Sequence record: PZ445432.1
Origin: a phage
Strand: one strand, 5' to 3'
Length of the DNA: 64,000 nt
The position numbers and the translations under genes are program-made. Position 1 is the first letter of the stretch. Every line of letters starts with the position of its first letter. Shown piece after piece: positions 20,840 through 32,898 of the stretch. The notes under the pieces were generated by a model. The model did not search any database. It was not told the origin of the DNA and was given only the letters and a program-made list of their open reading frames with translations.

Positions 20840-21076
20840 ATGCGTAATTTTGTAGTAAAGAATGATTTTAACCGTGCTAGCACCCATAAGTCCGCTAGAG
20901 ATTATACACGACTTTCTAGTCATGAGGTAATGGATACCTGTTATGAAGAGCTGGAAGATAACTGGAATGAATGGCCAGACTTTTCTATGGAAGAAAACTG
21001 GGATGTTAGTGAAGATATGCTTCCTGGTTTTAAAGACCCCAAGAAGTGGGAGTCTATTAAAGAGACAGCTCTTTAA
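20840..21076 (+). CDS. hypothetical acidic protein
   Basis: ORF from track with GGAG RBS. Confidence 0.5.
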   Translation: MRNFVVKNDFNRASTHKSARDYTRLSSHEVMDTCYEELEDNWNEWPDFSMEENWDVSEDMLPGFKDPKKWESIKETAL

Positions 21077-21104
21077 TAGTTTTCTACACAATAAAGGATA
21101 AGTT

Positions 21105-21806
21105 ATGAAAGTAAAACCATTTGGTATGCTAGATATTGAATCTCTAGGAACTCCGGGGGATTGTGGTACTACTCATATCGCAATGCCTTCTTTCGCTTTT
21201 GTGGCTATGCATGGGATTGATAAAGACCCTGACTTAGTATTTGCTACTTTGGATGTGCAGGATCAGCTTAATTCTGGTGCCAAAGTTACAGCATCTACTC
21301 TAGCATTCTGGATGGATCAAGCTAAAAATAGCCCGTCTGCTATTCACATTATGGAAGCTATGAAGGAACGTAATCCAAAACTGATTGCCTTCCAAAATGG
21401 TAAACATCATTGCACTACTAAATTAGGCTCAAACTATGCTGCCTTCTCTATGGCTCAAAATATTATGGAGTTGGCTCTAGGCGAAAATGCTTTGTATTAT
21501 GGCAATGGCCCAGAGTTTGATATGACTATCTACTCTGCAAACACGTTCCATGCTGGAACCAATGAAGAGGTAGTTCCGTGGAAATTCTGGAATTTAGGCA
21601 ATGTTCGATCTCTTCGTAATCTCTGGATGCAAGCGGGTTATAGTTACAAAGATCTAGAGGCTGAAGGTATTAGCTGGGCAAAAGCTAAAATGGAGAAGAT
21701 GGACACCATTCGTTATGGGATCTATCCGGTTAAGCACGACCCAGCATTCGATGCCCTAGTTGAGGGCTATTGTGTTGCAGCTATGATCGAAAAAATGAAA
21801 ATTTGA
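21105..21806 (+). CDS. hypothetical protein (possible DEDD-type exonuclease, weak)
   Basis: N-terminal LDIESLG resembles exonuclease motif I; weak. Confidence 0.45.
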   Translation: MKVKPFGMLDIESLGTPGDCGTTHIAMPSFAFVAMHGIDKDPDLVFATLDVQDQLNSGAKVTASTLAFWMDQAKNSPSAIHIMEAMKERNPKLIAFQNGKHHCTTKLGSNYAAFSMAQNIMELALGENALYYGNGPEFDMTIYSANTFHAGTNEEVVPWKFWNLGNVRSLRNLWMQAGYSYKDLEAEGISWAKAKMEKMDTIRYGIYPVKHDPAFDALVEGYCVAAMIEKMKI

Positions 21807-21840
21807 TTTGCTTCCGGCTCCAAAATTCTGTATAATATAT
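21798..21840 (+). promoter_or_regulatory. conserved early sigma70 promoter
   Basis: atttgatttgcttccgg...ctgtataat. Confidence 0.55.
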
Positions 21841-21877
21841 TTATAAATTTGAGAAAACAATAAAAGGAAAAACAAAT

Positions 21878-22060
21878 ATGCCAGTATCTAAAAATGTTCG
21901 TAAAAATGGTAAGAAAGCTACTCGTAATCTGGGTATCCGTCGTATGGCCGAACGTCAATCAGGTGTCCAGAAAATCTTTGATCTGTTAAATCGTGCTAAT
22001 CCTAAAATTGATAACAGTAATGATACTGTTCTGCGCACTCTGCTGGCAATTGGTCTGTAA
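21878..22060 (+). CDS. hypothetical basic protein
   Basis: ORF from track. Confidence 0.45.
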   Translation: MPVSKNVRKNGKKATRNLGIRRMAERQSGVQKIFDLLNRANPKIDNSNDTVLRTLLAIGL

Positions 22061-22113
22061 TAGATCAAATTTAAACAAATTCAAATCTCAAACTTCATAT
22101 AAGGAAGCAAATA

Positions 22114-22752
22114 ATGACTACTCGTATTTCTAAAACTCGCGCTCTGGCAACTATCAAATCTCTGGAAGCTAAAATCCGTAAAGCTGCTGAACAGCAGGTT
22201 CTGATCGCTGTTGGTGAAGGTAAGGATAAAAATAAGGTTGTAGTTGGCGCTGCAATCGAAGTAGACGATCTGTCCGCCCGTATTAAGGCAGATTTCCAAT
22301 CTCTCCTGGATATGATGTCCCAGCGTGATCGTATCAAAGCTGCTCTGATTAAGAGCAATGCGGAAACAATCGTTGAGATTGGCTCTCGTAAGATGACTGT
22401 TGCGGAAGCAATTGAAGCTAAGCGTTCTATGGAACTTAAAGCCCAACTGCTGGCTAACATGCGTAAGCAGTTCCAAGCCGCTACGGCTAAGTTTAATACG
22501 CAGAAAGCACAGTTTGATGCTAAATATGAGCGTTTGCAGGATAGCATGGCTACCCGCGATAAGAAAACTTCCGAAGATGAAGTTAAAATGCAGCTCAACC
22601 TGCTGGAACTCAAGAATACTCCATTCTTGATTGATCCGCTGGAACTGGAGAAGCTGATTAAGCAGCATGACGAGGAATACCAGGACTTTGCAACAAATGT
22701 TGACTTTGTTCTGTCCGAGTCTAACGCCTCTACCTTCATTGAAGTAGAGTAA
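22114..22752 (+). CDS. hypothetical coiled-coil protein
   Basis: AAGGAAG RBS before the ATG; antisense ORFs rejected. Confidence 0.55.
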   Translation: MTTRISKTRALATIKSLEAKIRKAAEQQVLIAVGEGKDKNKVVVGAAIEVDDLSARIKADFQSLLDMMSQRDRIKAALIKSNAETIVEIGSRKMTVAEAIEAKRSMELKAQLLANMRKQFQAATAKFNTQKAQFDAKYERLQDSMATRDKKTSEDEVKMQLNLLELKNTPFLIDPLELEKLIKQHDEEYQDFATNVDFVLSESNASTFIEVE

Positions 22753-23124
22753 TAATTTAAAAGCTAGTAAATCGGTAGACGAAAGCCCAAGCATCTTACC
22801 TCGCAGCAGCGGTTGAAATACGAGGTTAAATAAGACCGCTGACCATACTATAAAGTATAATCTATTGGAGATTATGTTTATTACATCAGACATTTAATCT
22901 GACACGTAAAAACAAAGCGTCGTTGATATTACCGACACAACTTCAAAGATCAACATTTAAGTATGAAAGCTGAAAAGTTTAAAGAACTCAAACTTCTAAA
23001 CTTCTAAAGCTAAAAGATGCAAAGTATTCGTTGATGATTCAAACCCTAGATCAAAGGTACATGGCTCATAAGATATGGCCTGTGGCGCCTCTAGGCTGTT
23101 TATCGGTTTACTAGTTTCACAATT

Positions 23125-23166
23125 TAAAAATGTATTTGCTAATTTATTAAGTTATCTGTATAATAT
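23125..23166 (+). promoter_or_regulatory. conserved early sigma70 promoter
   Basis: aaaaatgtatttgctaattt...ctgtataat. Confidence 0.55.
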
Positions 23167-23194
23167 ATTTTTAAATTGATGAAACGAGGCTATT

Positions 23195-24016
23195 ATGGGT
23201 AAATTACAAAAACAAATACTACCATATATAGATTATATCCGAGAAATTATAGAGTATAATCCCTATACTGGTAAATTATTCTATAAGCCTAATAAATATA
23301 AGAATAAAACTTGGCATACTTTATATGCTGGGAGAGAAATATGTAGTAAGAACTCTGATGGGTACATCAGAGTTAGTTTGCTCTTAGATAATAAACCCAC
23401 AATTATTTATGGACACCGAATAGCGTGGCTCCTTCACTATGGGGAGGAACCACCTGCTATGATTGATCATATAAATACTATACCGTGGGATAATAGAATT
23501 ATTAACCTAAGAGAGACAAATTTTAAGTTAAACAGACTTAATACTAACAAAACGGTAGGTGTAGAGCTGCTGCCAGAAGGATTTGTGTACAGCATTACAT
23601 TAGGTGAAAAGTTTTTTGTATCCCCCGGCTTCCCCACTTTCGAACAAGCTAAAGTGGAAAGAGAAAAACTAGTAAATGGTTTATGTAATGCAGAAATTGG
23701 GAAGCAGACCAATATTCTAATAGACGATGTTAGAGATTTACCTGAAATGTCCATTATTTGTCGTACAGTTATAGGTGCGCTGGAACTATCAGATGTGTTT
23801 AGTTTCACAGGATCCTATTTATTTATGGACTCAGATTTAGGAGATTCAGAGGTACAAGGAAAAGATTTATTAGATCATATACTATTATTAGGTCAAAGAC
23901 CCCTAAAAGTGATTCTAGTAACATCTAATCCTGTTGACGCAGAGTACATGAGAGGTACTCTTACGTCTTATGGATACCGAGAAAATCCCAATAGATTAGA
24001 ATATGATCTATTTTAA
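23195..24016 (+). CDS. HNH homing endonuclease-like protein
   Basis: IDHINTIPWDNRIINLRE HNH signature; N-terminus paralogous to the other HNH ORFs. Confidence 0.65.
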   Translation: MGKLQKQILPYIDYIREIIEYNPYTGKLFYKPNKYKNKTWHTLYAGREICSKNSDGYIRVSLLLDNKPTIIYGHRIAWLLHYGEEPPAMIDHINTIPWDNRIINLRETNFKLNRLNTNKTVGVELLPEGFVYSITLGEKFFVSPGFPTFEQAKVEREKLVNGLCNAEIGKQTNILIDDVRDLPEMSIICRTVIGALELSDVFSFTGSYLFMDSDLGDSEVQGKDLLDHILLLGQRPLKVILVTSNPVDAEYMRGTLTSYGYRENPNRLEYDLF

Positions 24017-24028
24017 GGAGTAAAAAGA

Positions 24029-24478
24029 ATGAAGGCAGCTTTGCTTTTAGTAGCTGCCCTTACCTTCAGCTTCAATAGTCATGCGACCTACGACTCAAAG
24101 CAGATTGATTGCATTGCAAAAAATATCTACTTCGAAGCACGAGGTGAGGGCATAAAGGGAATGACGGCGATTGCACACGTTACTAAAAACCGTGTTAACT
24201 CTGGTACTTTTCCTGATTCTTACTGTAAAGTAGTATATCAGTCTAACCAGTTCTCTTGGGTATCTAAGAGACCAAAAGTTGATAAAACTGATGAGGCTTG
24301 GAAAACCGCCAAGAATTTAGCTAGAGTGATATACTACGTTGATTCACCACAAGATCCTACACATGGAGCGTTATACTTCCATAGTGGTAAAGATAAACCG
24401 CGCTGGACAAAGAAGTTTAAGAAAACAACTAAGATTGAGGGACATACATTTTATAAGCCTGTTGTCACTAAAACTTAA
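24029..24478 (+). CDS. secreted SleB/CwlJ-type cell-wall hydrolase
   Basis: signal peptide plus NIYFEARGE motif typical of the Hydrolase_2 family. Confidence 0.65.
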   Translation: MKAALLLVAALTFSFNSHATYDSKQIDCIAKNIYFEARGEGIKGMTAIAHVTKNRVNSGTFPDSYCKVVYQSNQFSWVSKRPKVDKTDEAWKTAKNLARVIYYVDSPQDPTHGALYFHSGKDKPRWTKKFKKTTKIEGHTFYKPVVTKT

Positions 24479-24517
24479 AAATTTATTTGCTTAAATACTT
24501 AAACTTCTGTATAATAC
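24478..24517 (+). promoter_or_regulatory. conserved early sigma70 promoter
   Basis: aaaatttatttgcttaaat...ctgtataat. Confidence 0.55.
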
Positions 24518-24546
24518 TTTCATAAATTAATGAGAGGAAGCGAAAT

Positions 24547-24717
24547 ATGAAAAACTTGATCGTCATTGGTGTTAACACTCGCGGTATTCGTACTACGAAA
24601 ACTGTTAAAACTTCTAACGTTGCTGAGATCACTACGAACCCTAAAAAGTTTGATTTCGCCAAAGTCTCAGCAGTTATGACAGAACAATCTTTTAACCAAG
24701 CGTTAGGAATGAAATAA
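24547..24717 (+). CDS. small hypothetical protein (56 aa)
   Basis: hand-translated MKNLIVIGVNTRGIRTTKTV...; stop overlaps next start (TAATG); absent from the >=60 aa track. Confidence 0.35.
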   Translation: MKNLIVIGVNTRGIRTTKTVKTSNVAEITTNPKKFDFAKVSAVMTEQSFNQALGMK

Positions 24718-25160
24718 TGGGAGAGAATATTTTAGATGTTTTGCGTAGAGCTTTGCAGGATTCTAAGTTTAATGGTTCTGATAAAGAAGTCGCTAAAAGC
24801 TATCAGACCATAATCGGGGATCTTCAGCGTATTGATAAAGATTTCATCACTTCTGAACAATTTGTGTCTTATCTCAAAGCTCAACTAAAAAGCATTAACC
24901 AGATGAAAGCTAAACTTCATGGTCAAGATCTTGATAGTTATAGCTTGCAGTCCGCTCAGTATGAATACATTCTAAATAAGTGGTTGCAGGAGTATCTGCC
25001 TCCTCAGTTATCTGATACTGAGATTCGTAAATACTTTGCAGAATTAGTTAAGCTAAACCCTGGAATTACAAAAGGTATGCTGATGAAAGCGATTAAGGAA
25101 GAATTTCCTGGGCGTTATGATGGTGGTACTGCTGCTCAGATTGCTGGCGAATTTAATTAA
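24717..25160 (+). CDS. hypothetical protein
   Basis: ORF from track. Confidence 0.5.
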   Translation: MGENILDVLRRALQDSKFNGSDKEVAKSYQTIIGDLQRIDKDFITSEQFVSYLKAQLKSINQMKAKLHGQDLDSYSLQSAQYEYILNKWLQEYLPPQLSDTEIRKYFAELVKLNPGITKGMLMKAIKEEFPGRYDGGTAAQIAGEFN

Positions 25161-25200
25161 AAATTTATTTGCTAAATGCCTATAAATTCTGTATAATATA
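25160..25200 (+). promoter_or_regulatory. conserved early sigma70 promoter driving an ORF-free region
   Basis: aaaatttatttgctaaatgcctataaattctgtataat. Confidence 0.55.
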
Positions 25201-25201
25201 T

Positions 25202-25993
25202 TAATAAATTAGAGAACAGCGGGCCGATTACGCTGAGTGCAGAATCCAAACCGGAGTGCATTGAATAGAGTCGGTGGGTTAGTTGTAAAACTAGTACACA
25301 GTGGGCGGCAATCCCGGTTAGTGGCTAGAACGTGTAAAATGGGGCGTCTGAAACCTCTCCCCTAAACTCTTCTCTAGTTTATAAATAGTGGGGTGTGGAA
25401 ATCACTTATGTAGTAACACTGCCGATCTAGTATAAACGGTATTATCAAGCCGTAACTGGTGGAAGATGTAGGTTCGAATCCTACGATCGGTAAGAACTGG
25501 ATAACTGGTGCTTTTAACGTAAAAGCTTCCGAGGTTAGTTGCGCACTGCCTAAACCACGCGGTAGTTGGTTCCAGACTAACCAACCAGTCTGCTGAATAG
25601 TTTTATTACGATTTAACTATGTCCAGGCTAAAGAAGAACTTTAGAAGGTATTCTAGGTGGTGAAGTTTTTCCTCCATATCGGAGTAGTTTTTCAAGCTAC
25701 CAACAAAGTGGGAAATGCTGACATGAGAGATGTCACTAATGGTGCACAATAGCACAGGTAATTCGCGATAACTCCTGTTGAGTAGCAGCAAAAGGCGGGA
25801 AGTCATGACCCCAAGCCTAACCGAGTCCTCAATATACCGCAGGACATAACCACTAAGTCACCCTGACTTAAACTGGAAAATAATAGACGTTACTGTATTT
25901 TGTCTTGAAATACTTAATGAGTGAGACTTATGACTCTCCCGGTATCGTCTGTATTTTTAAGAGTTTTTACGAGAGTTCTTAAAAATACTTAAA
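25202..25993 (+). ncRNA. candidate non-coding RNA region (ORF-free, promoter-driven)
   Basis: ~800 nt downstream of a consensus promoter with no plausible plus-strand ORF; contains hairpins and one tRNA-like element. Confidence 0.3.
25421..25492 (+). other. tRNA-like element (canonical T-arm and acceptor pairing, other arms unresolved)
   Basis: gtaggttcgaatcctac T-arm; gccgatc/gatcggt acceptor; D and anticodon arms did not fold canonically by hand. Confidence 0.35.
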
Positions 25994-26068
25994 CGGGGTG
26001 TAGTCTAAGGGAGAGGCAGGAGTCTTCTAAATTCCTTTATGCAGGTTCGAATCCTGTCACCTCGGCCA
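25994..26068 (+). tRNA. tRNA-Arg (anticodon UCU)
   Basis: hand-folded cloverleaf: acceptor cggggtg/cacctcg, D stem gtct/aggc, anticodon loop cTTCTaa, T-arm gcaggttcgaatcctgt, encoded CCA. Confidence 0.8.
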
Positions 26069-26102
26069 ATTTTATTAACTGTAACTAAAACAAAGGAAAT
26101 AT

Positions 26103-27050
26103 ATGTTTAATACTAAAAATATGAAAGAACTGACTTCTGAGCAAAAAGTAATTCGCACTATTAAACGTTGGGGTATTGGTTCTGTAGTTGGTTTAGCAGG
26201 TTTAATCCTAGCTTTTAATTCATATACTATTGTTTCTGATGGTACAGTTAAAACCCAAACATTTCTGGGTAAAGTAGATCCTAACCCAGTATTACCTGGT
26301 TTCCATCTTGTAAACCCATTTGCATCTTTCGATACTTTTAGTACAAAAGATATTGCTGTAAAATTAGATAAACTTCAGGTTCCTAGCCAGGATAAGTTTA
26401 AATCCACTGTTGACCTGACTGTTATGTTGCAGTTTGATGGTTCTAAGGCACCGATCAACCGTATTAATGCAGGTACTCAGGATCAGGCGTTAGACAAATA
26501 TGTTACTGAAAAATTACTGTCTACCATCCGTGAGTTTGGTAAGTCTGTACCTAAAGCACAAGATTTGTTTGATGCTAAAATTCAAGCACAATTACAAACT
26601 GCAATTCAACAGGAAGTTGAAGAGTATGCACGCCCTTATGGTTACACAGTTAAGCAAGTGTTCCTTCAGGATATTACATTGCCACCGGTAATTATGGAAC
26701 AGGTACAGAATACCAAAGTTCGTGAAGAACAAGTTAATGCTGCGAAAGCTGAATTGGCTCGTGTTGAACAAGAAGCACAGCAGAAGGTTAAACAAGCAGA
26801 AGCAGATCGTGAAGCTCGTAACAACCAAGCTATTGCAAACGAACGTGATGCAGATGCTAAACTGTATGCAGCTAAGAAAGAAGCCGAAGCTAACGCCGCT
26901 CTGCAACGTACTATTACTCCTGAGATGATTCGCTGGAAACAACTAGAAGTTGAAATGACTCGTGCTCAGAAGTATCAAGGTGGTGTGCCTCAGACTGTAG
27001 TAGGTACTGGTTACGATGGTCAAATGATCATGGATATGCGTAACAAGTAA
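26103..27050 (+). CDS. SPFH (band-7 / HflK/C-like) domain membrane protein
   Basis: N-terminal TM segment, SPFH-like core, C-terminal coiled-coil QEAQQKVKQAEADREARN. Confidence 0.65.
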   Translation: MFNTKNMKELTSEQKVIRTIKRWGIGSVVGLAGLILAFNSYTIVSDGTVKTQTFLGKVDPNPVLPGFHLVNPFASFDTFSTKDIAVKLDKLQVPSQDKFKSTVDLTVMLQFDGSKAPINRINAGTQDQALDKYVTEKLLSTIREFGKSVPKAQDLFDAKIQAQLQTAIQQEVEEYARPYGYTVKQVFLQDITLPPVIMEQVQNTKVREEQVNAAKAELARVEQEAQQKVKQAEADREARNNQAIANERDADAKLYAAKKEAEANAALQRTITPEMIRWKQLEVEMTRAQKYQGGVPQTVVGTGYDGQMIMDMRNK

Positions 27051-27073
27051 TAGTTACACGTAATCTTCGAAGT

Positions 27074-27114
27074 AAGCCCTGTGTTCCCTGGAGAGCGCAG
27101 GGCTTTTCTGTTTT
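27074..27114 (+). terminator. rho-independent terminator
   Basis: aagccctg...cagggctt hairpin followed by ttctgtttt. Confidence 0.65.
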
Positions 27115-27264
27115 AAGGTAGAGGATAAGTGTGTCTCTTTGGTCACTCAGCTATGACAAATACTTTACACTATATCACATTGAAAATCAAGTGGGGATAA
27201 CAATTTTGGGGTCTATCCACTTACCTGCTACCCTTAAGCATCCTGTTATTTTCCTCTAAAAAGT

Positions 27265-27308
27265 TAAAAAATTCAATTGCTTGAATGCTAAATTCTCTGT
27301 ATAATATA
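27265..27308 (+). promoter_or_regulatory. conserved early sigma70 promoter
   Basis: aaaaaattcaattgcttgaatg...ctgtataat. Confidence 0.55.
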
Positions 27309-27337
27309 CTTATAAATTTGAGAGAGAGGAATCTAGT

Positions 27338-27856
27338 ATGACTGTTGATGAACTAACAGAACATCTCTTATCTAGAGGGTTTGATACAGATAAGTATCAT
27401 TGCTGGTTAAGTCCGGAAGGATGGCTAACAGTCCCGTTGTATGACTTCTCTGGGATGTTGAGAGGCTATCAGACTTATAATCCTTCTGCTCCAAAAGGTC
27501 ATGGTAAGTGCCCCTTTGAAGCTAAATATTTTACTTATTCAACTACACAGTGTGTATGGGGATTAGAAACTCTCAATGGAGATGAAAAAGTAGTATTGAT
27601 TGCTGAATCTGTATTTAAGGCAGTTGCGTTACATAACGCTGGTTATCCAGCCCTGGCAATGTTGGGTTCTTCCCCCGGAAAAGCATTGTTAAAGCAATTG
27701 AAATTATTACCTTTTAAATTGGTAGCTGTCGGAGATAATGATCCTGCGGGTGAAAAATTTGCTAGAAAATTAAACGGCTTTGTTTCTCCTGTAGATGTAG
27801 ATGAGATGTCTACCGAAAACTTGAAAAATTTTCTTGCTATGAAGCTAAATTTCTAA
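27338..27856 (+). CDS. hypothetical protein
   Basis: ORF from track. Confidence 0.5.
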   Translation: MTVDELTEHLLSRGFDTDKYHCWLSPEGWLTVPLYDFSGMLRGYQTYNPSAPKGHGKCPFEAKYFTYSTTQCVWGLETLNGDEKVVLIAESVFKAVALHNAGYPALAMLGSSPGKALLKQLKLLPFKLVAVGDNDPAGEKFARKLNGFVSPVDVDEMSTENLKNFLAMKLNF

Positions 27857-27864
27857 TATAATAT
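27830..27864 (+). promoter_or_regulatory. sigma70 promoter for the tRNA cluster
   Basis: ttgcta, 17-bp spacer, tataat, embedded in the 3' end of the preceding ORF. Confidence 0.45.
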
Positions 27865-27876
27865 ATTTATAAATTC

Positions 27877-27965
27877 GGAAGAATAGCATAACGGTATTGC
27901 AGCAGATTGCTAATCTGTCGGTTTGAAATATAGCCTTGTGGGTTCGATTCCCACTTCTTCCGCCA
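27877..27965 (+). tRNA. tRNA-Ser (anticodon GCU), type II
   Basis: acceptor ggaagaa/ttcttcc, anticodon arm gcaga-ttGCTaa-tctgt, long variable arm, T-arm gtgggttcgattcccac, CCA. Confidence 0.8.
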
Positions 27966-27971
27966 AATTCT

Positions 27972-28049
27972 GGTTCTCAAGCTCATATGGTATGAGCACC
28001 CAGCTCATAACTGGAAGGTACGTAGGTTCGAATCCTCGGGGAGCCACCA
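27972..28049 (+). tRNA. tRNA with CAU anticodon (Met or Ile2)
   Basis: anticodon loop ctCATaa; D stem gctc/gagc; acceptor ggttctc/gggagcc with G-U pairs; T stem imperfect; CCA. Confidence 0.6.
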
Positions 28050-28068
28050 AATTAAATAAGGACAACTA

Positions 28069-28257
28069 ATGGAATTATTCATAGTTTCTGTTAAATTTGC
28101 ACAAGATAGAGAACGTTCGGATGAGTTTAAACAAGGGTACAGACTAGTAAAGGCTACATCTGAACTCCATGCTATGGACAAAGTAGTAGACTATATGTAT
28201 AATGTAGAAGATGTTTACTACGTCAATGCTTTAGAAGCCTCAAAAGTAATTGACTAA
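28069..28257 (+). CDS. hypothetical protein
   Basis: ORF from track. Confidence 0.45.
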   Translation: MELFIVSVKFAQDRERSDEFKQGYRLVKATSELHAMDKVVDYMYNVEDVYYVNALEASKVID

Positions 28258-28266
28258 GGAGACTAT

Positions 28267-28452
28267 ATGTCTAAGTTTCAAGAACTCAAGCAAGAGCTAG
28301 AAGAATGTGCCTGCCCTGAGTGTAGAGGAATTGGTGAAAGTTCTGATGCAGAAGCAGTGGATACTTTTTGCAATATCTGGGTTTGCCCAAATTGCAAGGG
28401 TACAGGTATTAATCCTAACTGTGGTATTTCTCTAGATATTGAAAGAGGATAA
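28267..28452 (+). CDS. small Cys-rich zinc-ribbon-like protein
   Basis: CACPEC...CNIWVCPNC paired Cys motifs. Confidence 0.45.
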   Translation: MSKFQELKQELEECACPECRGIGESSDAEAVDTFCNIWVCPNCKGTGINPNCGISLDIERG

Positions 28453-28552
28453 TACCTGTGAAACTAAAAGATTATTATATTGGTTGGTTTGTGGGACTAG
28501 TAGTAGGATTTTCACTAGGCTATAATATGTATCAACTAATAAACTGATTACA

Positions 28553-28627
28553 TGGGGGTGTAATCGAATTGGCATAGGTACTGTACTTAAAATTCAGGTT
28601 TTGTGGGTTCGAATCCCAGCGAGGCGT
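28553..28627 (+). other. tRNA-like element (unresolved fold)
   Basis: gtgggttcgaatcccag T-arm; no canonical acceptor partner found by hand. Confidence 0.3.
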
Positions 28628-28675
28628 AACTGCCTGGTGTGATAGAGGCATCATTCCACTAATATTGGAAAACTA

Positions 28676-28906
28676 ATGAAACGAAAATTAAAAAAATCTT
28701 ATATAATTAAGATAAATAAGCTAAGAAGTAGGGCAAAAGGATGGCCACTTCGGATATTAATTGCGGATAACCATATTAGATACCATGCGGAACAACGTCA
28801 TTATAAACAGTGGGAGTCATACTGCCGCTCAAAAGCAGGTCGTTTAGATGGATCTTATGAGTTTCTATTTGGTAAGAAGCCTACTAGAGTAGCTTTAGGT
28901 AATTAA
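28676..28906 (+). CDS. hypothetical basic protein
   Basis: ORF from track. Confidence 0.4.
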   Translation: MKRKLKKSYIIKINKLRSRAKGWPLRILIADNHIRYHAEQRHYKQWESYCRSKAGRLDGSYEFLFGKKPTRVALGN

Positions 28907-28992
28907 TACTTGGAAGAGCAAATCGAATTGGCGACGAAAACCGCTTGGAAAGTGGCTGACCGGTAAAACGGCTTGAGAGTTCAAATCTCTCC
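28902..28992 (+). tRNA. tRNA-Ser (anticodon GGA), type II
   Basis: acceptor ggaagag/ctcttcc, anticodon loop ttGGAaa, long variable arm, T-arm gagagttcaaatctctc, CCA. Confidence 0.8.
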
Positions 28993-29004
28993 TCTTCCGC
29001 CAAA

Positions 29005-29099
29005 CAATTTATATGGTAGGTCAATCCAACGGCTGGCGCTGGACTCCGACTTGAAATCGGTTGATCGTAGTGATACGGTGTAAGGGTTCGATCCCCTTA
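29005..29099 (+). tRNA. tRNA-Ser (anticodon UGA), type II
   Basis: acceptor ggtaggt/acctacc, anticodon loop cTTGAaa, long variable arm, T-arm aagggttcgatcccctt, CCA. Confidence 0.75.
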
Positions 29100-29465
29100 C
29101 CTACCTCCAAATCTTGAAGTATGCCGGAATCGGTAGACGGGGCTGCCTAAAAGGTTTATAGGGAACATCCACTCCCTGCAACATACCTCATAAAGCGGCT
29201 GAGATAAATGGTCTATCTCGTGAAGGTTCAAGTCCTTCTGCTTCTTGATACATCTATGGCTCAAAGTGTAACGGTGCTATTTGATGCTCTTGGTAAGACT
29301 TCCCCGACATGCGTTCGGGAGTAAGCTGCTAAGACTAGAGTAGAAGAGTTTCTGAGAGCCGCCACAATTGAAAATTCGTACTCGTCTTGAGCTGCGTGCA
29401 ATAGGAGATAACTTGATTAGTATTCTAGAACATGCTAATTGAGGATGGTTTCGCTAACCCTGCGA
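29100..29465 (+). ncRNA. candidate structured RNA region including a tRNA-like T-arm (29212-29228)
   Basis: ORF-free 365 nt between tRNAs; gaaggttcaagtccttc T-arm-like hairpin; 13-bp inverted repeat ccacaattgaaaa/ttttcaattgtgg (29353-29365 and 29457-29469). Confidence 0.3.
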
Positions 29466-29542
29466 GTTTTCAATTGTGGCTATATCATAATTGGTTAATG
29501 ATCCTGATTGTGAATCAGGCCTATGTGGATTCGAATTCCACT
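29466..29542 (+). tRNA. tRNA-His (anticodon GUG)
   Basis: acceptor gtggcta/tagccac, D stem tcat/atga, anticodon arm cctga-ttGTGaa-tcagg, T-arm gtggattcgaattccac, CCA. Confidence 0.8.
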
Positions 29543-29577
29543 AGCCACCCCAAATTAACTTAAATAGGAAATAAAAT

Positions 29578-29775
29578 ATGGCTGATTTCTGCAAACAATG
29601 CTCCATTGATATGTGGGGCAGAGATACTGGTGATCTTTCTGGTTTGATTACAGAAGCCGAAGTCAAAGAAGGTTATGGTGCAGTTGTGGTTTGCGAAGGA
29701 TGCGGAGTTATTCGAGTAGATCATGAAGGCAAACGTTTAGAAGAACCGGAAAATTTAGGAGAAACAAATGAGTAA
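29578..29775 (+). CDS. small zinc-ribbon-like protein
   Basis: CKQC ... CEGC paired Cys motifs. Confidence 0.45.
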   Translation: MADFCKQCSIDMWGRDTGDLSGLITEAEVKEGYGAVVVCEGCGVIRVDHEGKRLEEPENLGETNE

Positions 29776-30004
29776 TGCTTTAATTAGTGAAATTATGTTA
29801 ACACGTCTTGCAGAACTGCAAACTCTTCGAGATGAATCTCAGAATAACTTATCCTACCATAAACAGATGGTAGATACTCTTACTACTCGTATTGAAACTT
29901 ACGAGCGTGATATTGCAGCATTACAAGCTCTTTTCTCCGTATCAGCACCAGATACGTTAGAACAGCCTGCTGTATCTCAGCCAGTAGAGACAGCATCTAG
30001 TTAA
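29768..30004 (+). CDS. hypothetical coiled-coil protein
   Basis: ORF from track. Confidence 0.45.
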   Translation: MSNALISEIMLTRLAELQTLRDESQNNLSYHKQMVDTLTTRIETYERDIAALQALFSVSAPDTLEQPAVSQPVETASS

Positions 30005-30013
30005 TAGCATTTT

Positions 30014-30089
30014 TGGAGTGTAGATCAATTGGCAGATCGTCGGCCTCTGACTCCGAAGGTTCCTGGTTCGATCCCAGGCACTCCAGCCA
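30014..30089 (+). tRNA. tRNA-Gln (anticodon CUG)
   Basis: U1-A72 acceptor tggagtg/cactcca, D stem gatc/gatc, anticodon loop cTCTGac, T-arm cctggttcgatcccagg, CCA. Confidence 0.75.
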
Positions 30090-30095
30090 AATAAT

Positions 30096-30171
30096 TGGAG
30101 AGTAGTGTAACGGTTAGCACAACGGCCTTTGACTCCGTTAATGGTAGGTTCGATTCCTCCTTCTCCAGCCA
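30096..30171 (+). tRNA. tRNA-Gln (anticodon UUG)
   Basis: U1-A72 acceptor tggagag/ttctcca, anticodon loop cTTTGac, T-arm gtaggttcgattcctcc, CCA. Confidence 0.75.
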
Positions 30172-30178
30172 AAATAAT

Positions 30179-30253
30179 GCGTGATTAGTTCAGTGGCTAG
30201 AACAACTGGCTTCCAACCAGTAGACACGAGTTCGACTCTCGTATCCCGCACCA
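30179..30253 (+). tRNA. tRNA-Gly (anticodon UCC)
   Basis: anticodon arm actgg-cTTCCaa-ccagt, D stem gttc/gaac, T-arm acgagttcgactctcgt, CCA; one U-C mismatch in acceptor. Confidence 0.75.
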
Positions 30254-30267
30254 AATAAGGAATCTCT

Positions 30268-30519
30268 ATGCACGTTTTTGAGTTTCGTAATAAAAGTACC
30301 AATAAACGAGTTATTGTTATTGGGGAAACATATCGAGCATATGAACAAACTGACGGCTCTGTTATCTTGAATGATGAGAAAGGGGGTTTTAGCTTTTATC
30401 CAGAAGAACCTTATGAAGAGTTTCGAAAACAATTTAACCTAGACTGGAGAAAGCATTTAAACACTGTTGCTTCATCTGTAGTACTGCCAACTACCAGTAC
30501 TGTACTATCTAATGGCTGA
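30268..30519 (+). CDS. hypothetical protein
   Basis: ORF from track. Confidence 0.45.
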   Translation: MHVFEFRNKSTNKRVIVIGETYRAYEQTDGSVILNDEKGGFSFYPEEPYEEFRKQFNLDWRKHLNTVASSVVLPTTSTVLSNG

Positions 30520-30676
30520 TAACCTAAAAGTCAAGATCGACAAACAAAAGAAACGTGTAGAAGTAGAGATTGGTGAAGAACGTGTAGCCTTCACCTTTGA
30601 ATTTCTACAACAAATGGCAATGACAGTTATGACTGATAAGTCTCCTGTTATTGAAAAAGAAATCCCGTTGAAATAA
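30512..30676 (+). CDS. small hypothetical protein (54 aa)
   Basis: hand-translated MADNLKVKIDKQKKRVEVEIGEER...; followed by cccgttgaaataacggg hairpin. Confidence 0.3.
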   Translation: MADNLKVKIDKQKKRVEVEIGEERVAFTFEFLQQMAMTVMTDKSPVIEKEIPLK

Positions 30677-30684
30677 CGGGTTCT

Positions 30685-30771
30685 GCTGGGTTGGCAGAAT
30701 GGTTGAATGCACCTGATTTGTAATCAGGAGGAGTAATCCCGTTGCAGGTTCGAATCCTGTGCCCAGCACCA
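30685..30771 (+). tRNA. type II tRNA, anticodon read as UGU (identity uncertain)
   Basis: acceptor gctgggt/gcccagc, anticodon arm cctga-ttTGTaa-tcagg, 15-nt variable arm, T-arm gcaggttcgaatcctgt, CCA. Confidence 0.55.
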
Positions 30772-30785
30772 ATTTAAGGACTATT

Positions 30786-30953
30786 ATGTTTAAACTGTTA
30801 GTAGTTATCTGGTATAGTCAATCAAATAGAGCGAATACCTCCCACGTTATAGACTTTACTACTAAAAATGAAGCTGAAAAAGCATATGCTAATTTAATAG
30901 AACGCAATAAAGAATCTCGTAGTATAGTTTATGAAGTGACTAAACTTTATTAA
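30786..30953 (+). CDS. hypothetical protein
   Basis: internal ATG with AAGGA RBS; track ORF start 30759 overlaps the tRNA and is trimmed. Confidence 0.4.
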   Translation: MFKLLVVIWYSQSNRANTSHVIDFTTKNEAEKAYANLIERNKESRSIVYEVTKLY

Positions 30954-30992
30954 AAATTCATTTGCTTTCCCTCTTATTTATTGTTATAATAT
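30952..30992 (+). promoter_or_regulatory. conserved early sigma70 promoter
   Basis: aaaaattcatttgctttccc...ttgttataat. Confidence 0.55.
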
Positions 30993-31020
30993 TTATATAA
31001 ATTAATGAGAGGGAAACCAA

Positions 31021-31311
31021 ATGAAACGTTATCTTTCTGTTATGTTCCAAACCGGCGGCCAAAGATACACCTATGAATTTCCACCTTCCTGGAAAATCAG
31101 GGAAGGTGATCAAATAGTTGTGTTGACACCGCGTGAAGAATATAAAGTAGTGACGGTTAAACAAGTATTTCCAAAAGATCATGAACCAGCTATAGGCATC
31201 CGATATAAGATGATTCATGGCGTGGTTCGTCAAGTACCACGAACTGAGGTAGAAGTAGATAATACTGGAGAAACTAAATTCCATTATACTTCTTACTTAG
31301 ACAGTGTGTGA
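31021..31311 (+). CDS. hypothetical protein
   Basis: ORF from track. Confidence 0.5.
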   Translation: MKRYLSVMFQTGGQRYTYEFPPSWKIREGDQIVVLTPREEYKVVTVKQVFPKDHEPAIGIRYKMIHGVVRQVPRTEVEVDNTGETKFHYTSYLDSV

Positions 31312-31326
31312 TGTAAATATTTTAAT

Positions 31327-31403
31327 GCTTCGGTAGCTTAGCGATCTAAAGCACTCGGCTGATAACCGAGAGATCAGGGGTTTAAATCCCTCCCGGAGTA
31401 CCA
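31327..31403 (+). tRNA. tRNA-Ile (anticodon GAU)
   Basis: acceptor gcttcgg/ccggagt with G-U pairs, D stem gctt/aagc, anticodon arm ctcgg-ctGATaa-ccgag, T-loop tttaaat, CCA. Confidence 0.75.
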
Positions 31404-31499
31404 AATCTAGGAATTAAGACTATGCGTCCAGGAAAGTTTAAAAAAGCTAGTTGGTCTAAAGAGTACAAAGAATACTTACTTAGCCTAGTAAAACGTAAT

Positions 31500-31575
31500 A
31501 GTTAGTTGGCAGAGTGGTTATGCGCCTCCTTCATACGGAGCGACTACAGTGGTTCAAATCCACTACTAACTACCA
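31500..31575 (+). tRNA. tRNA with CAU anticodon (Met or Ile2)
   Basis: acceptor agttagt/actaact, anticodon loop ttCATac, T-arm agtggttcaaatccact, CCA. Confidence 0.7.
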
Positions 31576-31588
31576 AACAGGAGATCTA

Positions 31589-31957
31589 ATGAAAGCGTAT
31601 CAAAATCTTAAATCTGGCGTAATTAATATTGTTCATAATAATCAGATTATTCAACTGTACTCTAAAGATGGTGAACTTAAACAAAAGGTTCTAGTTGAAG
31701 ATCTAGATGGTATCACACCTCATTTTGACCCAGAATCCTTTCGTGAAGTCAAAGTGGAAGTCGCCCCTCAAATTGAAGGTGGTCAACACCTAAATGTCAA
31801 TGTGTTAAGTCGTGATCAGCTTTTGGATGCGCAGAAACATCCTGAAAAATACCCTCAATTAACTATCCGTGTTTCAGGGTACGCTGTGCGTTTTAACGCA
31901 CTGACGCGTGAACAGCAGAACGACGTTATTAGTCGTACATTTACTCAGGCGATGTAA
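31589..31957 (+). CDS. grcA: autonomous glycyl radical cofactor GrcA(YfiD)-like protein
   Basis: C-terminus [10 protein letters not shown]...[34 protein letters not shown] closely matches E. coli GrcA as recalled; AGGAG RBS; track start 31514 overlaps the tRNA. Confidence 0.8.
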
Positions 31958-32038
31958 TGGGGCTTGGATACGGTTTCTACGAACTACGTAAGGTAGTCGA
32001 GCAAACTCCATTTATCTCCCAAGTTTTAGGAGAAATGT

Positions 32039-32353
32039 GTGGATCGAGCATTAAGACGTCATCACCGGCAACGTGTAAAGAACAACCGCAAGAAGTATTG
32101 GACAGTCTTCCCACATGAAGAAAGCCCTAAACGGTTAGGTATTATCACTACTACTCCTTGTATCTGTTCTTGTTGGATGTGCGGGAACCCTCGCAAACAC
32201 TTTAAGAATAGTAAAGCAGGGATGAAAACCTCGGAGATTAGGAAAATGGAAGCAATGATTACGGATATTTCAAATGATGAATTTGATGGCTTCGTAGGAT
32301 TCGGGGAAGATATTAGCTCGGACTGTTTCGAAGATGAGCTCCCAGGTCTATGA
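32039..32353 (+). CDS. hypothetical basic Cys-rich protein
   Basis: GTG start with AGGAG RBS; CICSCWMCGNP cluster. Confidence 0.5.
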   Translation: MDRALRRHHRQRVKNNRKKYWTVFPHEESPKRLGIITTTPCICSCWMCGNPRKHFKNSKAGMKTSEIRKMEAMITDISNDEFDGFVGFGEDISSDCFEDELPGL

Positions 32354-32362
32354 TTAATAACA

Positions 32363-32398
32363 AACCCCAGCTATTGAATAAGTAGTCTGGGGTTTTTC
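32363..32398 (+). terminator. rho-independent terminator
   Basis: aaccccag...ctggggtt hairpin followed by tttt. Confidence 0.65.
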
Positions 32399-32474
32399 TG
32401 TATACAGGTAGATAATTTATGTATAATAAAATTCATCCACATTAGGTTAATTCAAAAGACTTAATGGAGGTAAT

Positions 32475-32822
32475 ATGAGCCGTACTTATCGTAGACAAAC
32501 TGGTGATCAGTGGTGGAAGTCTAAAGCTAATTACACCCAGGGATATACTTTCCTCAAAGCAAGTGACTACTACATTCGTGTTACTTATGCTAAATCCTGG
32601 GATGAGGTAGAACAGGAAATGGAAGAAGCAACCATTCGTAATGAGAAAAAGGATGGTTATAGCTGGAATTCTGTTAGTAAGAATGTTAAGTGGCATTCTA
32701 ATAAAATGGTTCGTCAAGGAAATCGTCAAGAACTCCACCGCGTGATGAAAGACCCAGAAAATTACGACTATAATCGCGATCATGACATGCGTAAGCGTGG
32801 GTTACGGTGGTGCTATGACTAA
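32475..32822 (+). CDS. hypothetical protein
   Basis: GGAGG RBS. Confidence 0.5.
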   Translation: MSRTYRRQTGDQWWKSKANYTQGYTFLKASDYYIRVTYAKSWDEVEQEMEEATIRNEKKDGYSWNSVSKNVKWHSNKMVRQGNRQELHRVMKDPENYDYNRDHDMRKRGLRWCYD

Positions 32823-32829
32823 ATTCTGA

Positions 32830-32870
32830 AATAATTCATTTGCTAAACCTCTCTTTTCTTGCTATAATAT
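32830..32870 (+). promoter_or_regulatory. conserved early sigma70 promoter
   Basis: aattcatttgctaaacc...gctataat. Confidence 0.55.
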
Positions 32871-32898
32871 ATTTATAAATTGATGAGAGAGGTTTGAA

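Follow-up and report, generated by a model that had tools for sequence, protein, structure and literature searches.

What are the two tRNA-like elements in the tRNA region of this phage genome (PZ445432.1), each with a canonical T arm in an apparently non-canonical body? A preliminary description had treated them as one class and left three options: tRNA pseudogenes, processing or regulatory elements, or genuine tRNAs with unusual structure. The shared T-arm type is borne out. Within the window (the whole 64,000-nt stretch analysed) the string GGTTCGAATCC occurs at 25471-25481 and 28606-28616, and the tRNA region contains all 5 of its copies, each on the + strand; chance alone would predict 0.01. 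The elements themselves are unrelated. Element 2 (28554-28630) appears to be a hybrid at the scar of a deletion, and element 1 (25421-25492) a conserved, non-decoding, tRNA-like module of the RNA annotated as RNAX in phage T5; that both assignments hold, any RNase P step excluded, we consider probable. The earlier observation is thus confirmed in part, and its interpretation partly supported: the pseudogene option suits element 2, the processing or regulatory option element 1, and genuine tRNAs with unusual structure find least support at either site.

Structure and conservation of element 1

Sequence related to element 1 is present in 513 phage records. As previously noted, its acceptor stem is a 7-bp pairing; one of the pairs in GCCGATC/GATCGGT is a G.U and the other 6 are Watson-Crick. 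The 5' strand, GCCGAUC, occupies 25421-25427 in the Rfam tRNA alignment; the 3' strand, GAUCGGU, is followed by the discriminator A and the 3' side of an internal loop (AAGA; 25485-25495 in all). CCA is encoded by each of the 19 ordinary (sibling) tRNA genes in the window and in Escherichia phage HildyBeyeler (Bas33, Tequintavirus), but element 1 lacks it and continues with AGAACU after the discriminator. Across homologs, acceptor pairs 5-68 and 6-67 show compensatory changes, and mismatches occur as well (U.U at pair 5-68 in most homologs, G.A at pair 1-72 in about 40%). The D arm (GUAU/AAACGGUA/UUAU, 25430-25445, Rfam alignment) folds with 3 pairs and a U.U, with the conserved G18 G19 in its loop; the U.U, pair 13-22, is U-A in four Epseptimavirus homologs. 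Of the two arms once described as non-canonical, only the anticodon arm is so. It is replaced by a mini hairpin (25449-25460) whose 3-bp stem (GCC/GGU) carries a loop of 6 nt (GUAACU); the stem covaries (GCC/GGU, ACC/GGU, GGC/GCC). The T arm (GUAGG/UUCGAAU/CCUAC, 25468-25484) is paired in 100% of cells, with 2 pairs changed on both sides. Rfam gives element 1 a tRNA score of 39.0 bits, which exceeds the gathering score of 29 bits, but the alignment passes over the anticodon arm as a gap of 18 nt; most sibling tRNAs reach 49-68 bits. ARAGORN gives 25420-25493 the odd label 'tRNA-Ser(ACT)'.

The alignments establish this predicted structure and its conservation. Over 18 distinct homologs, 92.1% of cells in the named structure are paired, against 28-44% when the partners are slid, although the homolog set is shallow and these cell counts overstate the number of independent events because many sequences are near-identical. 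Both sides change in 14 pairs, and the covariation score was reached by 0 of 500 shuffles. In a covariance-model search each genome yielded a single full copy, scoring 149.6 bits in the window and 151.3 bits in T5. In Tequintavirus, Epseptimavirus and Sugarlandvirus alike, pairing in the acceptor, T, mini-hairpin and clamp helices (the last is described below) is maintained by compensatory changes; across the same three genera the T-loop sequence, the D-loop GG and U8/A14 are conserved, and element 1 is the most conserved block of its intergenic region.

The clamp helix and the RNAX region

The leader and trailer of element 1 pair with each other in a clamp helix. Its 5' strand is AUCA-C-UUAU-G-UAGU (25401-25414; RNAalifold, 18 distinct homologs) and its 3' strand ACUG-G-AUAA-C-UGGU (25496-25509; RNAalifold, pair count and single-sequence folds). 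The 12 pairs are formed in 99.5% of cells in the 18 homologs, with compensatory changes on both sides in 6 of the 12, and the helix recurs in single-sequence minimum-free-energy folds of 4 divergent variants. G.U pairs at two positions in 11 of the 18 sequences indicate that pairing occurs in RNA read from the + strand. The outer 4-bp blocks covary, and the central 6 positions are invariant, including a C.C and a G.G mismatch. Between clamp and acceptor stem lies the internal-loop strand AACACU (25415-25420), whose columns are invariant in two alignments and whose last base, U25420, is position -1 to the acceptor stem. A conserved hairpin, GCUUUUA-ACG-UAAAAGC (25510-25526), directly follows the clamp, with 95% of cells paired and 2 pairs changed on both sides. 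A literature search of limited scope found no earlier description of the clamp helix.

Element 1 and its clamp stand within a conserved non-coding region (25385-25993, + strand) that extends from the leader to immediately upstream of tRNA-Arg(UCU), which is an ordinary tRNA at 25994-26068 (ARAGORN; Rfam, 49.3 bits; T5 annotation). By annotation and sequence comparison this region matches T5 RNAX (misc_RNA T5s08). In the T5 record (NC_005859) rnaX, described as a 'stable RNA with unknown functions', lies downstream of promoter P16-17 and spans 40848-41566, up to tRNA-Arg. Locus and orientation are the same in both phages, after a YqeY-like gene and that promoter, and the aligned part is 97.7% identical. 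However, an insertion adds about 83 nt to the T5 copy, and the T5 record holds a single 719-nt feature that marks neither the tRNA-like head nor the clamp nor any other hairpin. Identity over the region is about 97% within Tequintavirus and 73-80% in Epseptimavirus, where up to 19 gap openings per 593 nt argue that it is non-coding. It holds many conserved hairpins, and the small ORFs annotated there in HildyBeyeler have no Pfam match.

The anticodon region differs by lineage while acceptor stem and clamp stay. Most homologs have the 3-bp hairpin, Klebsiella phages carry an arm 20 nt longer, and in KFSSM a single hairpin stands in place of both D and anticodon arms. EPS7, PMBT22 and Sds2 lack the T and D arms yet retain clamp, internal loop and a stem resembling the acceptor; the tRNA shape is therefore dispensable in some lineages, which weakens a mechanism centred on RNase P.

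Possible role of element 1

Element 1 is best explained as the tRNA-shaped 5' module of a structured non-coding RNA of about 600 nt, the putative ortholog of T5 RNAX, ending at tRNA-Arg(UCU). A processing or regulatory role suits it best because compensatory changes accompany its conservation in three phage genera, it has neither a decoding anticodon loop nor a CCA, and it lies within RNAX. The module keeps the acceptor/T-arm stack and the elbow of a tRNA (7-bp acceptor, U-1/G+1, A73, canonical T loop, D-loop GG), has lost the anticodon arm and the encoded CCA, and has gained the 12-bp helix of leader and trailer that locks it. Such a module is very probably non-decoding. Our best guess is that it acts in recognition or processing by the tRNA-maturation machinery and in stabilisation, with RNase P cleavage before G25421 as the leading candidate step and the invariant clamp centre as a candidate binding site for a further factor; this assignment of enzyme and function is tentative, and we hold it at somewhat less than even. 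RNase P substrates do not usually have their leader and trailer paired with each other, which counts against that step. Conversely, RNase P cleaves the YrlA RNA of M. smegmatis, a tRNA mimic whose acceptor stem has 7 bp, and CCA is added to it (PMC4201824), a precedent for tRNA enzymes reading such mimics.

YrlA-type Y RNAs resemble element 1 in being non-decoding, in keeping T arm, D arm and acceptor stem, and in having a long stem formed from distant strands (Chen et al., 2014, PMC4201824). However, they are circularly permuted (T arm, closed acceptor stem-loop, D arm), with the terminal stem at the place of the anticodon stem, and are encoded next to Ro60 (PMC4201824); element 1 has the arm order of a tRNA, a stem that extends the acceptor, no adjacent Ro60 and no Y-RNA-type Rfam match. 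mascRNA, at the 3' end of MALAT1, is a tRNA-shaped, non-decoding signal in a longer transcript that RNase P and further tRNA enzymes recognise. In the tRNA cluster of phage T4, species 1 and 2 are stable RNAs of unknown function, co-transcribed with tRNAs. No sequence similarity of element 1 to these RNAs was detected; the mascRNA model matched only elsewhere, on a true tRNA, at a chance-level 20.9 bits. To our knowledge, a covarying leader-trailer clamp round a tRNA-like body has been described for neither mascRNA nor the T4 species.

The invariant clamp centre (C-UUAU-G/G-AUAA-C, with two fixed mismatches), flanked by covarying blocks, has the pattern typical of a sequence-specific binding site, and the clamp persists where the tRNA head is replaced. 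Both features would suit a tRNA-mimicking ligand or decoy akin to bacterial Y RNAs, in which the clamp centre binds a phage or host protein and the head attracts or diverts either an enzyme that binds tRNA or a defence nuclease that targets it. Y RNAs, including those of phages, combine a tRNA-like domain with a terminal stem (PMC4201824), and T5 tRNAs are known counter-defence tools (PMC11464382). Nevertheless, we regard this reading as rather unlikely: none of the neighbouring ORFs tested proved to be a Ro60/TROVE gene, no partner is known, the topology and the Rfam result set element 1 apart from YrlA, and a head without an anticodon loop would make a poor decoy for anticodon nucleases. The geometry also fits an RNase III site of the T7 style (lower stem, asymmetric loop, upper stem), the lower helix having 14 positions, the internal loop 6x4, and the stems stacked above it 7 and 5 bp; the tRNA-like head would merely cap the upper stem. 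Such a site would accommodate the EPS7-type variant that lacks a T arm, and RNase III has been implicated in the synthesis of phage T4 tRNAs (McClain, 1979, as cited in PMC4810235). Yet the lower helix is short and broken by two mismatches, and RNase III has no need of the conserved T-loop sequence, D-loop GG and U8/A14, so that this explanation seems improbable.

A true tRNA that decodes through an unusual anticodon loop, such as a suppressor, would agree with the Rfam score above the gathering score, with the ARAGORN calls (Ser(ACU) in the window, SeC(UCA) in Epseptimavirus homologs) and with the annotation of homologs as tRNA-Sec or tRNA-Pro in some GenBank records. It would have to read codons, however, with a 3-bp anticodon stem and a 6-nt loop; the UCA variants require a shifted stem register, with the loop-closing pair mismatched and C at position 37; several lineages replace the 'anticodon' region outright; and the absent CCA and the paired leader and trailer are equally out of place. 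In the T5 annotation nearly all tRNA genes carry a record of an amber-suppressor test, and this stretch is filed as RNAX, not as a tRNA. We consider decoding very unlikely. Neutral decay of a former tRNA gene would explain the degenerate anticodon arm and the mismatched acceptor stem, and several pipelines do label the element tRNA-Pseudo or tRNA-OTHER, but helices held by compensatory changes in three genera, within the most conserved intergenic block, leave the pseudogene reading of element 1 with hardly any credibility.

Element 2 at a deletion junction

Compared with the deposited HildyBeyeler genome, the window is identical over 64 kb save for one 5,041-bp deletion, and element 2 sits on the scar. 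By blastn, window 1-28618 equals HildyBeyeler 43049-71666 at 100% identity, and window 28598-63518 equals 76686-111607 with one mismatch and one gap, which fit the junction overlap, given that the parental sequences differ just 5' of the repeat. Window 63519-64000 equals HildyBeyeler 1-482, i.e., the window wraps the end of the deposited record. The two long alignments overlap at a 14-bp repeat, GGGTTCGAATCCCA (28605-28618, + strand), which stands at both deletion endpoints in the undeleted genome; HildyBeyeler has exactly 2 copies, at 71653 and 76694 (record 40000-89999, 50 kb examined), and the window has 1.

Upstream of the junction, 28554-28604 is the 5' two-thirds of a tRNA-Leu(UAA) (acceptor 5' strand, D arm, anticodon arm and start of the T stem; blastn, ARAGORN, Rfam), 100% identical to HildyBeyeler 71602-71652 within the intact gene. 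Downstream, a foreign tail (28619-28654, HildyBeyeler 76708 onward) replaces the Leu 3' acceptor strand and CCA and includes the hairpin AGGC-GUAACU-GCCU (28622-28635). The tail comes from a T-arm remnant that follows tRNA-Leu(UAG) in HildyBeyeler, where it is unannotated; the remnant occurs at 99-100% identity in 162 phage records, without annotation in nearly all records listed, and has no Rfam or ARAGORN match. The first intact ORF past the junction (28676-28906, + strand; ORF list) is the ortholog of bas33_0111 in the HildyBeyeler annotation. Twelve tRNA genes are gone, 11 of them lost whole between the repeat copies together with 9 small ORFs.

Damage to element 2 consists of the missing 3' acceptor strand and outermost T-stem pair. 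Its D and anticodon arms, reported not to fold canonically, are those of the intact tRNA-Leu(UAA), and its 5' end, placed at 28553, is G28554. Against the Rfam tRNA model the intact HildyBeyeler gene scores 54.6 bits; the hybrid aligns over model positions 6-65 only and scores 23.3 bits, below the 29-bit gathering score. ARAGORN, which calls the intact gene, makes no call at element 2. Both the drop in score and the absent call are due to the loss of the 3' acceptor strand. Standard, well-scoring tRNA predictions are thus found at neither site.

Judged by its sequence, element 2 is a non-functional hybrid pseudogene at the 5,041-bp deletion junction. The T arm of the parental tRNA-Leu(UAA) and the T-arm remnant 5 kb downstream would have offered the direct repeat, and recombination or replication slippage across its two copies would have removed the intervening DNA. 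The Leu gene would thereby retain its 5' part and acquire a tail that neither pairs with the acceptor 5' strand nor supplies a CCA. The sharing of the repeat, the loss of the intervening DNA and the hybrid gene with its foreign tail can be read directly from the aligned genomes.

The junction string is absent from the phages, viral_contigs, metagenome_contigs and genome_contigs collections, and the variant therefore has no independent record. This absence, together with the 100% identity of the rest of the window to a deposited record whose end it wraps, could point to an assembly or in-silico sequence-handling artefact in the source of the window. Such an origin is nonetheless doubtful. The breakpoints fall exactly on the sole two copies of the repeat, a pattern expected of recombination or slippage but not of a cut at random; a repeat of 14 bp would not make a modern assembly collapse; and the deleted block belongs to a region that is dispensable in T5 (PMC11464382). 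Large deletions of the T5 tRNA region are documented in T5Mos, T5-123 and the Glukhov 2018 collection (PMC11464382), which resemble the present case in being kilobase losses of many tRNA genes from a dispensable early region in viable phages (PMC11464382). Phage phiAPCEc03 has naturally and independently lost the same block, again leaving a hybrid tRNA-Leu with mismatched acceptor strands as the scar. There, however, tRNA-Leu(UAA) and tRNA-Leu(UAG) recombined over their whole length into a mosaic, whereas in element 2 a tRNA gene is joined to a T-arm remnant within the 14-bp T-loop repeat.

The tRNA-Like Head of RNAX

The two tRNA-like elements of the preliminary description are real and far above chance, but they are two different things, both explicable with known biology. 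The first (element 1, window 25421-25492) falls within the misc_RNA rnaX when the locus is checked against the T5 annotation. The T5 record describes this feature as "RNAX, stable RNA with unknown functions" (719 nt), and it is this note that supplies the word "stable". T5 rnaX is located 3′ of promoter P16-17 and extends to the first base of tRNA-Arg(UCU); seven further stable RNAs are recorded in T5, 3 of the 7 noted as "tRNA-like". The window carries the corresponding region at 25385-25993 (+), on the same strand, with alignable sequence and in the same position, flanked on one side by a YqeY-like gene and its promoter and on the other by tRNA-Arg(UCU). Element 1 is orthologous to a segment of T5 RNAX, a known but uncharacterised RNA annotated since 2004 with unknown function, and the fold described here is the first structural model found for any part of it. 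The accessible sources yielded neither papers dealing with RNAX or a Bas33 deletion variant nor RNA-seq of RNAX.

Annotation of this locus is inconsistent. ARAGORN calls element 1 as "tRNA-Ser(ACT)", and the Rfam tRNA model (RF00005) matches it with 39.0 bits over the full model length, passing over the anticodon arm as an 18-nt gap. In Escherichia phage HildyBeyeler (Bas33, Tequintavirus), small hypothetical ORFs and no RNA are annotated here, and homologs elsewhere are labeled tRNA-OTHER, tRNA-Pseudo, tRNA-Sec(tca), tRNA-Pro, or not at all. A tRNA mimic explains these clashing labels (tRNA-Ser, -Sec, -Pro, -OTHER, pseudo and small ORFs).

Over the remainder of RNAX (window 25510-25993), identity is about 97% within Tequintavirus and drops to 73-80% in Epseptimavirus, where the alignments contain up to 19 gap openings. 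The consensus fold of the whole region contains several conserved hairpins, including a near-perfect 38-nt hairpin (GUAUUUUUAAGAGUUUUUACGAGAGUUCUUAAAAAUAC, window 25951-25988) located just 5′ of tRNA-Arg(UCU) and kept into the Klebsiella phages. Because no U run follows this hairpin, a classical terminator is excluded. In the consensus model, the invariant leader AGUGG may pair with a distal CCACU to form a closing helix. A coding role of the region was considered and rejected: the small ORFs of HildyBeyeler (25459-25596, +; 25606-25806, -) have no Pfam match and many indels separate the genera. A search of window 20000-36000 for ribozymes and other RNA families in Rfam (E up to 10) returned only tRNA-clan and chance-level matches.

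The ORF just 5′ of RNAX (window 24717-25160) is labeled "tRNA amidotransferase" in T5, EPS7 and fuchur, and matches the YqeY/GatB tail domain below threshold (25.2 bits, with a cut-off of 27 bits). The location of a YqeY-like gene beside a tRNA mimic is a weak hint; a functional tie was rejected, given the sub-threshold Pfam match and the lack of this gene at the same position in the Klebsiella phages bearing the module.

Structure and Conservation of the Clamped Module

Matches to the 281-nt region around element 1 occur in 513 phage records, with identity falling to about 72% in Klebsiella Sugarlandvirus. From 28 distinct homologs, 18 were aligned and folded with RNAalifold, which recovers the acceptor stem (5 of 7 pairs), the T stem and a small hairpin. 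The 7-bp acceptor pairing announced in the preliminary description is present in the window as GCCGAUC/GAUCGGU. The fold also includes an unexpected feature, a 12-bp helix that joins the leader (25401-25414, AUCACUUAUGUAGU) to the trailer (25496-25509, ACUGGAUAACUGGU) and clamps the tRNA-like head. This covarying clamp is the new detail added to RNAX. Across the 18 homologs, 92.1% of the cells of the structure are paired, vs. 28-44% when the partners are slid by 1-3 columns; changes on both sides occur in 14 pairs, and none of 500 shuffles reaches the covariation score.

The clamp is 99.5% paired, with compensatory changes in 6 of its 12 pairs, and the T stem is 100% paired with 2 compensatory pairs. 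Pairing reaches 84% in the acceptor stem, where the window and T5 have A-U at pair 5-68, one phage has U-A and most have U.U, and 95% in a downstream hairpin (25510-25526). The stem of the small hairpin varies as GCC/GGU, ACC/GGU and GGC/GCC. At two clamp positions, G.U pairs occur in 11 of the 18 sequences, which indicates that pairing takes place in RNA of the + strand. The center of the clamp is invariant in sequence, including a C.C and a G.G mismatch, and so are the strands of the internal loop between clamp and acceptor stem (AACACU and AAGA). Single-sequence folds of all four divergent variants examined contain the clamp.

When 22 homologs are combined into a covariance model (129 positions, 36 pairs), each genome yields a single full copy; the window copy (25400-25528) scores 149.6 bits and that of T5 151.3 bits. 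The existence of paralogs, such as the other "tRNA-like stable RNAs" of T5, was examined with this model and rejected, since its extra matches are ordinary tRNAs that align to the tRNA part only and score at most 28.6 bits. A metagenome scan with the clamp pattern gave, among the 120 matches listed, 2 real ones and otherwise chance matches.

In some Epseptimavirus phages, a 50-nt body replaces the tRNA-like head (whole module at 1008-1111 of extract L049, EPS7, and at 537-640 of extracts L048 and L050). The phages EPS7, PMBT22 and Sds2 retain the clamp, the internal loop, an acceptor-like stem of 5-6 bp, a hairpin with the 6-nt loop UUUACU and the downstream hairpin; the T and D arms are absent, and the covariance model scores 68.6 bits. 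The clamp thus outlasts the tRNA shape.

Decoding features are absent from element 1. Its "anticodon arm" consists of a 3-bp stem and the 6-nt loop GUAACU, where a 5-bp stem, a 7-nt loop, U33 and a readable anticodon would be expected, so that the non-canonical anticodon arm reported earlier holds for this element. In the Epseptimavirus homologs that ARAGORN calls as SeC(UCA), the stem requires a shifted register, its closing pair is mismatched, and C occupies position 37. Klebsiella phages have an arm 20 nt longer in its place, and a single hairpin stands in place of both D and anticodon arms in phage KFSSM. The ordinary tRNA genes of the window and HildyBeyeler encode CCA in 19 of 19 cases, mostly as CCAAAT; element 1 has AGAACU instead.

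Possible Functions of the Module

Two of the explanations offered in the preliminary description can be weighed against this evidence. A genuine tRNA of unusual structure would agree with the full-length Rfam match; the 3-bp/6-nt arm, the replacement of arms among homologs and the lack of an encoded CCA speak against it, and this explanation is highly improbable. A neutrally decaying tRNA pseudogene could equally have lost its anticodon arm, but the compensatory changes argue against neutral decay, and element 1 is the best-conserved block in an intergenic region otherwise rich in indels; of all explanations this one deserves the least credence.

Element 1 has kept the features that tRNA-maturation enzymes read: the coaxial stack, U-1/G+1, A73, the T loop and the GG of the D loop. 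For RNase P in particular, the sequence offers a 7-bp plus 5-bp stack, the leader AACACU, U-1/G+1 and the T loop UUCGAAU. These retained features make a recognition or processing/stabilizing module of the RNAX-tRNA-Arg transcript the leading, if still tentative, reading. The tRNA-maturation enzymes would read element 1 within this transcript, and RNase P would cut 5′ of G25421. A precedent exists in YrlA of M. smegmatis: this tRNA mimic, whose acceptor stem has 7 bp, is cleaved by RNase P and receives CCA (PMC4201824). Functionally, element 1 would resemble tRNA mimics such as YrlA and mascRNA. However, it does not belong to the YrlA type, in which the tRNA-like domain is permuted (T arm, closed acceptor stem-loop, D arm), the terminal stem sits at the anticodon position and the gene lies adjacent to Ro60 (PMC4201824), whereas element 1 has the ordinary order of tRNA arms and its clamp prolongs the acceptor stem. 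No TROVE domain was found among the immediate neighbor ORFs scanned, which encode a cell-wall hydrolase, DUF7616, the weak YqeY match, SPFH and Toprim. Identity with YrlA or Y RNA is ruled out by topology, neighborhood and the absence of an Rfam match.

The invariant clamp center could instead be a putative docking site, which would make element 1 a protein-binding tRNA mimic or decoy; this is conceivable, at a clearly lower probability than the processing module. A more specific proposal is rather doubtful: the module (25401-25526) might be the recognition domain of the RNAX family, seen as a phage non-coding RNA class not characterised before. Its tRNA-shaped head would be displayed on the clamp helix, the doubly mismatched clamp center would dock a dedicated protein, and the mimic would hijack, titrate or sense host machinery for tRNA handling or tRNA-targeting defence, rather than serve as a passive signal. 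The succession of lower stem, internal loop and upper stem is also of the type that RNase III could cleave, and a role of RNase III in T4 tRNA synthesis is on record; an RNase III site is nevertheless unlikely. A clamped tRNA mimic kept across at least three genera is a worthwhile and testable lead.

A Hybrid tRNA-Leu at a Deletion Junction

The second element has a different origin. The 3.5-kb stretch around both elements matches 464 T5-like phage records, the top match being HildyBeyeler (MZ501074), which is 100% identical as far as window 28618; downstream, the match resumes 5 kb further along the HildyBeyeler record. Comparison of the whole window with this record by blastn gives three colinear pieces. 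Window 1-28618 equals record 43049-71666 without mismatches or gaps. Window 28598-63518 equals 76686-111607 with 1 mismatch and 1 gap, located where the left and right HildyBeyeler sequences diverge immediately 5′ of the junction repeat. Finally, window 63519-64000 equals 1-482. The window is therefore the deposited genome in circular permutation, the sole difference being a deletion of 5,041 bp. At window 63518/63519 the end of the HildyBeyeler record is followed by its base 1 (the start of the small terminase gene), so that the source is another permutation of the same genome.

Element 2 was first placed at 28553-28627; its derivation from a tRNA is upheld, with the gene start moved to G28554 (span 28554-28630). 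HildyBeyeler has an intact tRNA-Leu(UAA) at 71602-71678 (called by ARAGORN; Rfam 54.6 bits), with near-canonical D and anticodon arms. Window 28554-28618 equals HildyBeyeler 71602-71666, through ...GGGTTCGAATCCCA (28605-28618), and from 28605 onward the window equals 76694 onward. Beyond 28618 it reads GCGAGGCGTAACTGCC, where the intact gene reads CCACCCCTACCA. Both deletion endpoints carry the 14-mer GGGTTCGAATCCCA, which is found nowhere else in the 50 kb of HildyBeyeler examined; the window keeps a single copy, and the breakpoints lie inside this direct repeat. Recombination or slippage between short direct repeats leaves such a signature.

The hybrid retains the 5-bp anticodon stem and the 7-nt loop, with U33 and a legible anticodon, inherited from Leu(UAA), so that the earlier claim of non-canonical D and anticodon arms does not extend to element 2. 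Its acceptor strands do not match, 5′ GGGGGUG standing opposite GCGAGGCG without a 7-bp stem, and AACTGC takes the place of CCA. The match to RF00005 is confined to model positions 6-65 and reaches 23.3 bits (gathering score 29), and ARAGORN makes no tRNA call.

The exact junction has no exact match in viral, metagenome and genome contigs and is contiguous in none of 50,697 phage records; given its absence from the collections searched, the variant may be a feature of a single assembly rather than of a phage stock. Both breakpoints coincide with the sole two copies of the repeat, which speaks for a real event.

The tail of element 2 comes from an unannotated T-arm remnant 3′ of tRNA-Leu(UAG) (HildyBeyeler 76641-76743; extract L002 1456-1558), whose 3′ part is window 28605-28654. 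This remnant is 99-100% identical across 162 T5-like phage records and is matched by neither Rfam nor ARAGORN. It includes the hairpin AGGC-GUAACU-GCCU, with the same loop as the small hairpin of element 1, and its 12-mer GGCGTAACTGCC equals the corresponding stretch of element-1 homologs in Klebsiella phages. The hairpin motif common to both (CGTAACTG) is found 3 times against 1.23 expected, which is not significant.

Loss of tRNA Genes

The deletion removes whole genes for tRNA-Tyr, -Glu, -Trp, -Phe, -Cys, -Asn, -Asp, -Lys(CUU), -Ala, -Leu(UAG) and -Pro(UGG), together with nine small ORFs. With the inactivated Leu(UAA), the total loss is 12 tRNAs, and twelve tRNA genes remain in the window. 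The Pro(UGG) gene of the deleted block (HildyBeyeler 75662-75739; L002 477-554) is called by ARAGORN and unannotated, and overlaps the end of the bas33_0107 CDS.

Large, viable deletions of the T5 tRNA region are well documented, as in T5Mos (about 8 kb missing) and T5-123 (about 3 kb missing; PMC11464382), and Glukhov et al. (2018), as cited in PMC11464382, report a collection of them. Element 2 is a further case of this known class, and the scar itself is ordinary. A natural parallel is phage phiAPCEc03 (KR422353), in which the same 5-kb tRNA block is missing. To judge from its scar, this loss is independent and arose by recombination between tRNA-Leu(UAA) and tRNA-Leu(UAG): the unannotated scar (extract L047, about 1290-1470) is a mosaic of UAA-, UAG-, UAA- and UAG-type segments, in that order. 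As in the window, the resulting hybrid tRNA-Leu has mismatched acceptor strands, and ARAGORN does not call it.

Element 2 makes the shedding of tRNA genes by T5-like phages visible at base resolution. T-loop sequences are near-identical among neighboring tRNA genes and would thus act as built-in deletion hotspots. In T5, tRNA-Tyr and tRNA-Lys(UUU) oppose tRNA-cleaving host defences; the Lys gene deleted here is the CUU isoacceptor. The variant would act differently on hosts with PARIS-type or retron-type systems, which is relevant to users of Bas33 stocks and to comparisons of tRNA repertoires.

Other Loci

In the window, three tRNA genes with annotation in HildyBeyeler and T5 escape ARAGORN: a CAU-anticodon Ile2/Met tRNA (27972-28049; Rfam 38.2 bits), tRNA-Ser(GGA) (28912-29002) and tRNA-Ser(UGA) (29015-29109; 38.3 bits, with the tRNA-Sec model only). 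These omissions and the behavior of Rfam indicate that several genuine tRNAs here are also atypical. Between tRNA-Ser(UGA) and tRNA-His, window 29110-29475 is the site of the T5 stable RNAs RNA1 ("tRNA-like"), RNAI and RNAIII; it is unannotated in HildyBeyeler, and T5 RNA1 matches the tRNA model with just 24 bits. A Toprim-domain ORF beside the tRNA genes (27338-27856), which several records name "DNA primase", is orthologous to T5.076; the latter appears to be Rad, an inhibitor of retron defence called ORF071 in a different T5 assembly (PMC10644984). Finally, window 50095-50222 (HildyBeyeler 98184-98311) matches itself at an offset of about 58 nt with 93% identity, which indicates a short tandem repeat in non-coding sequence.
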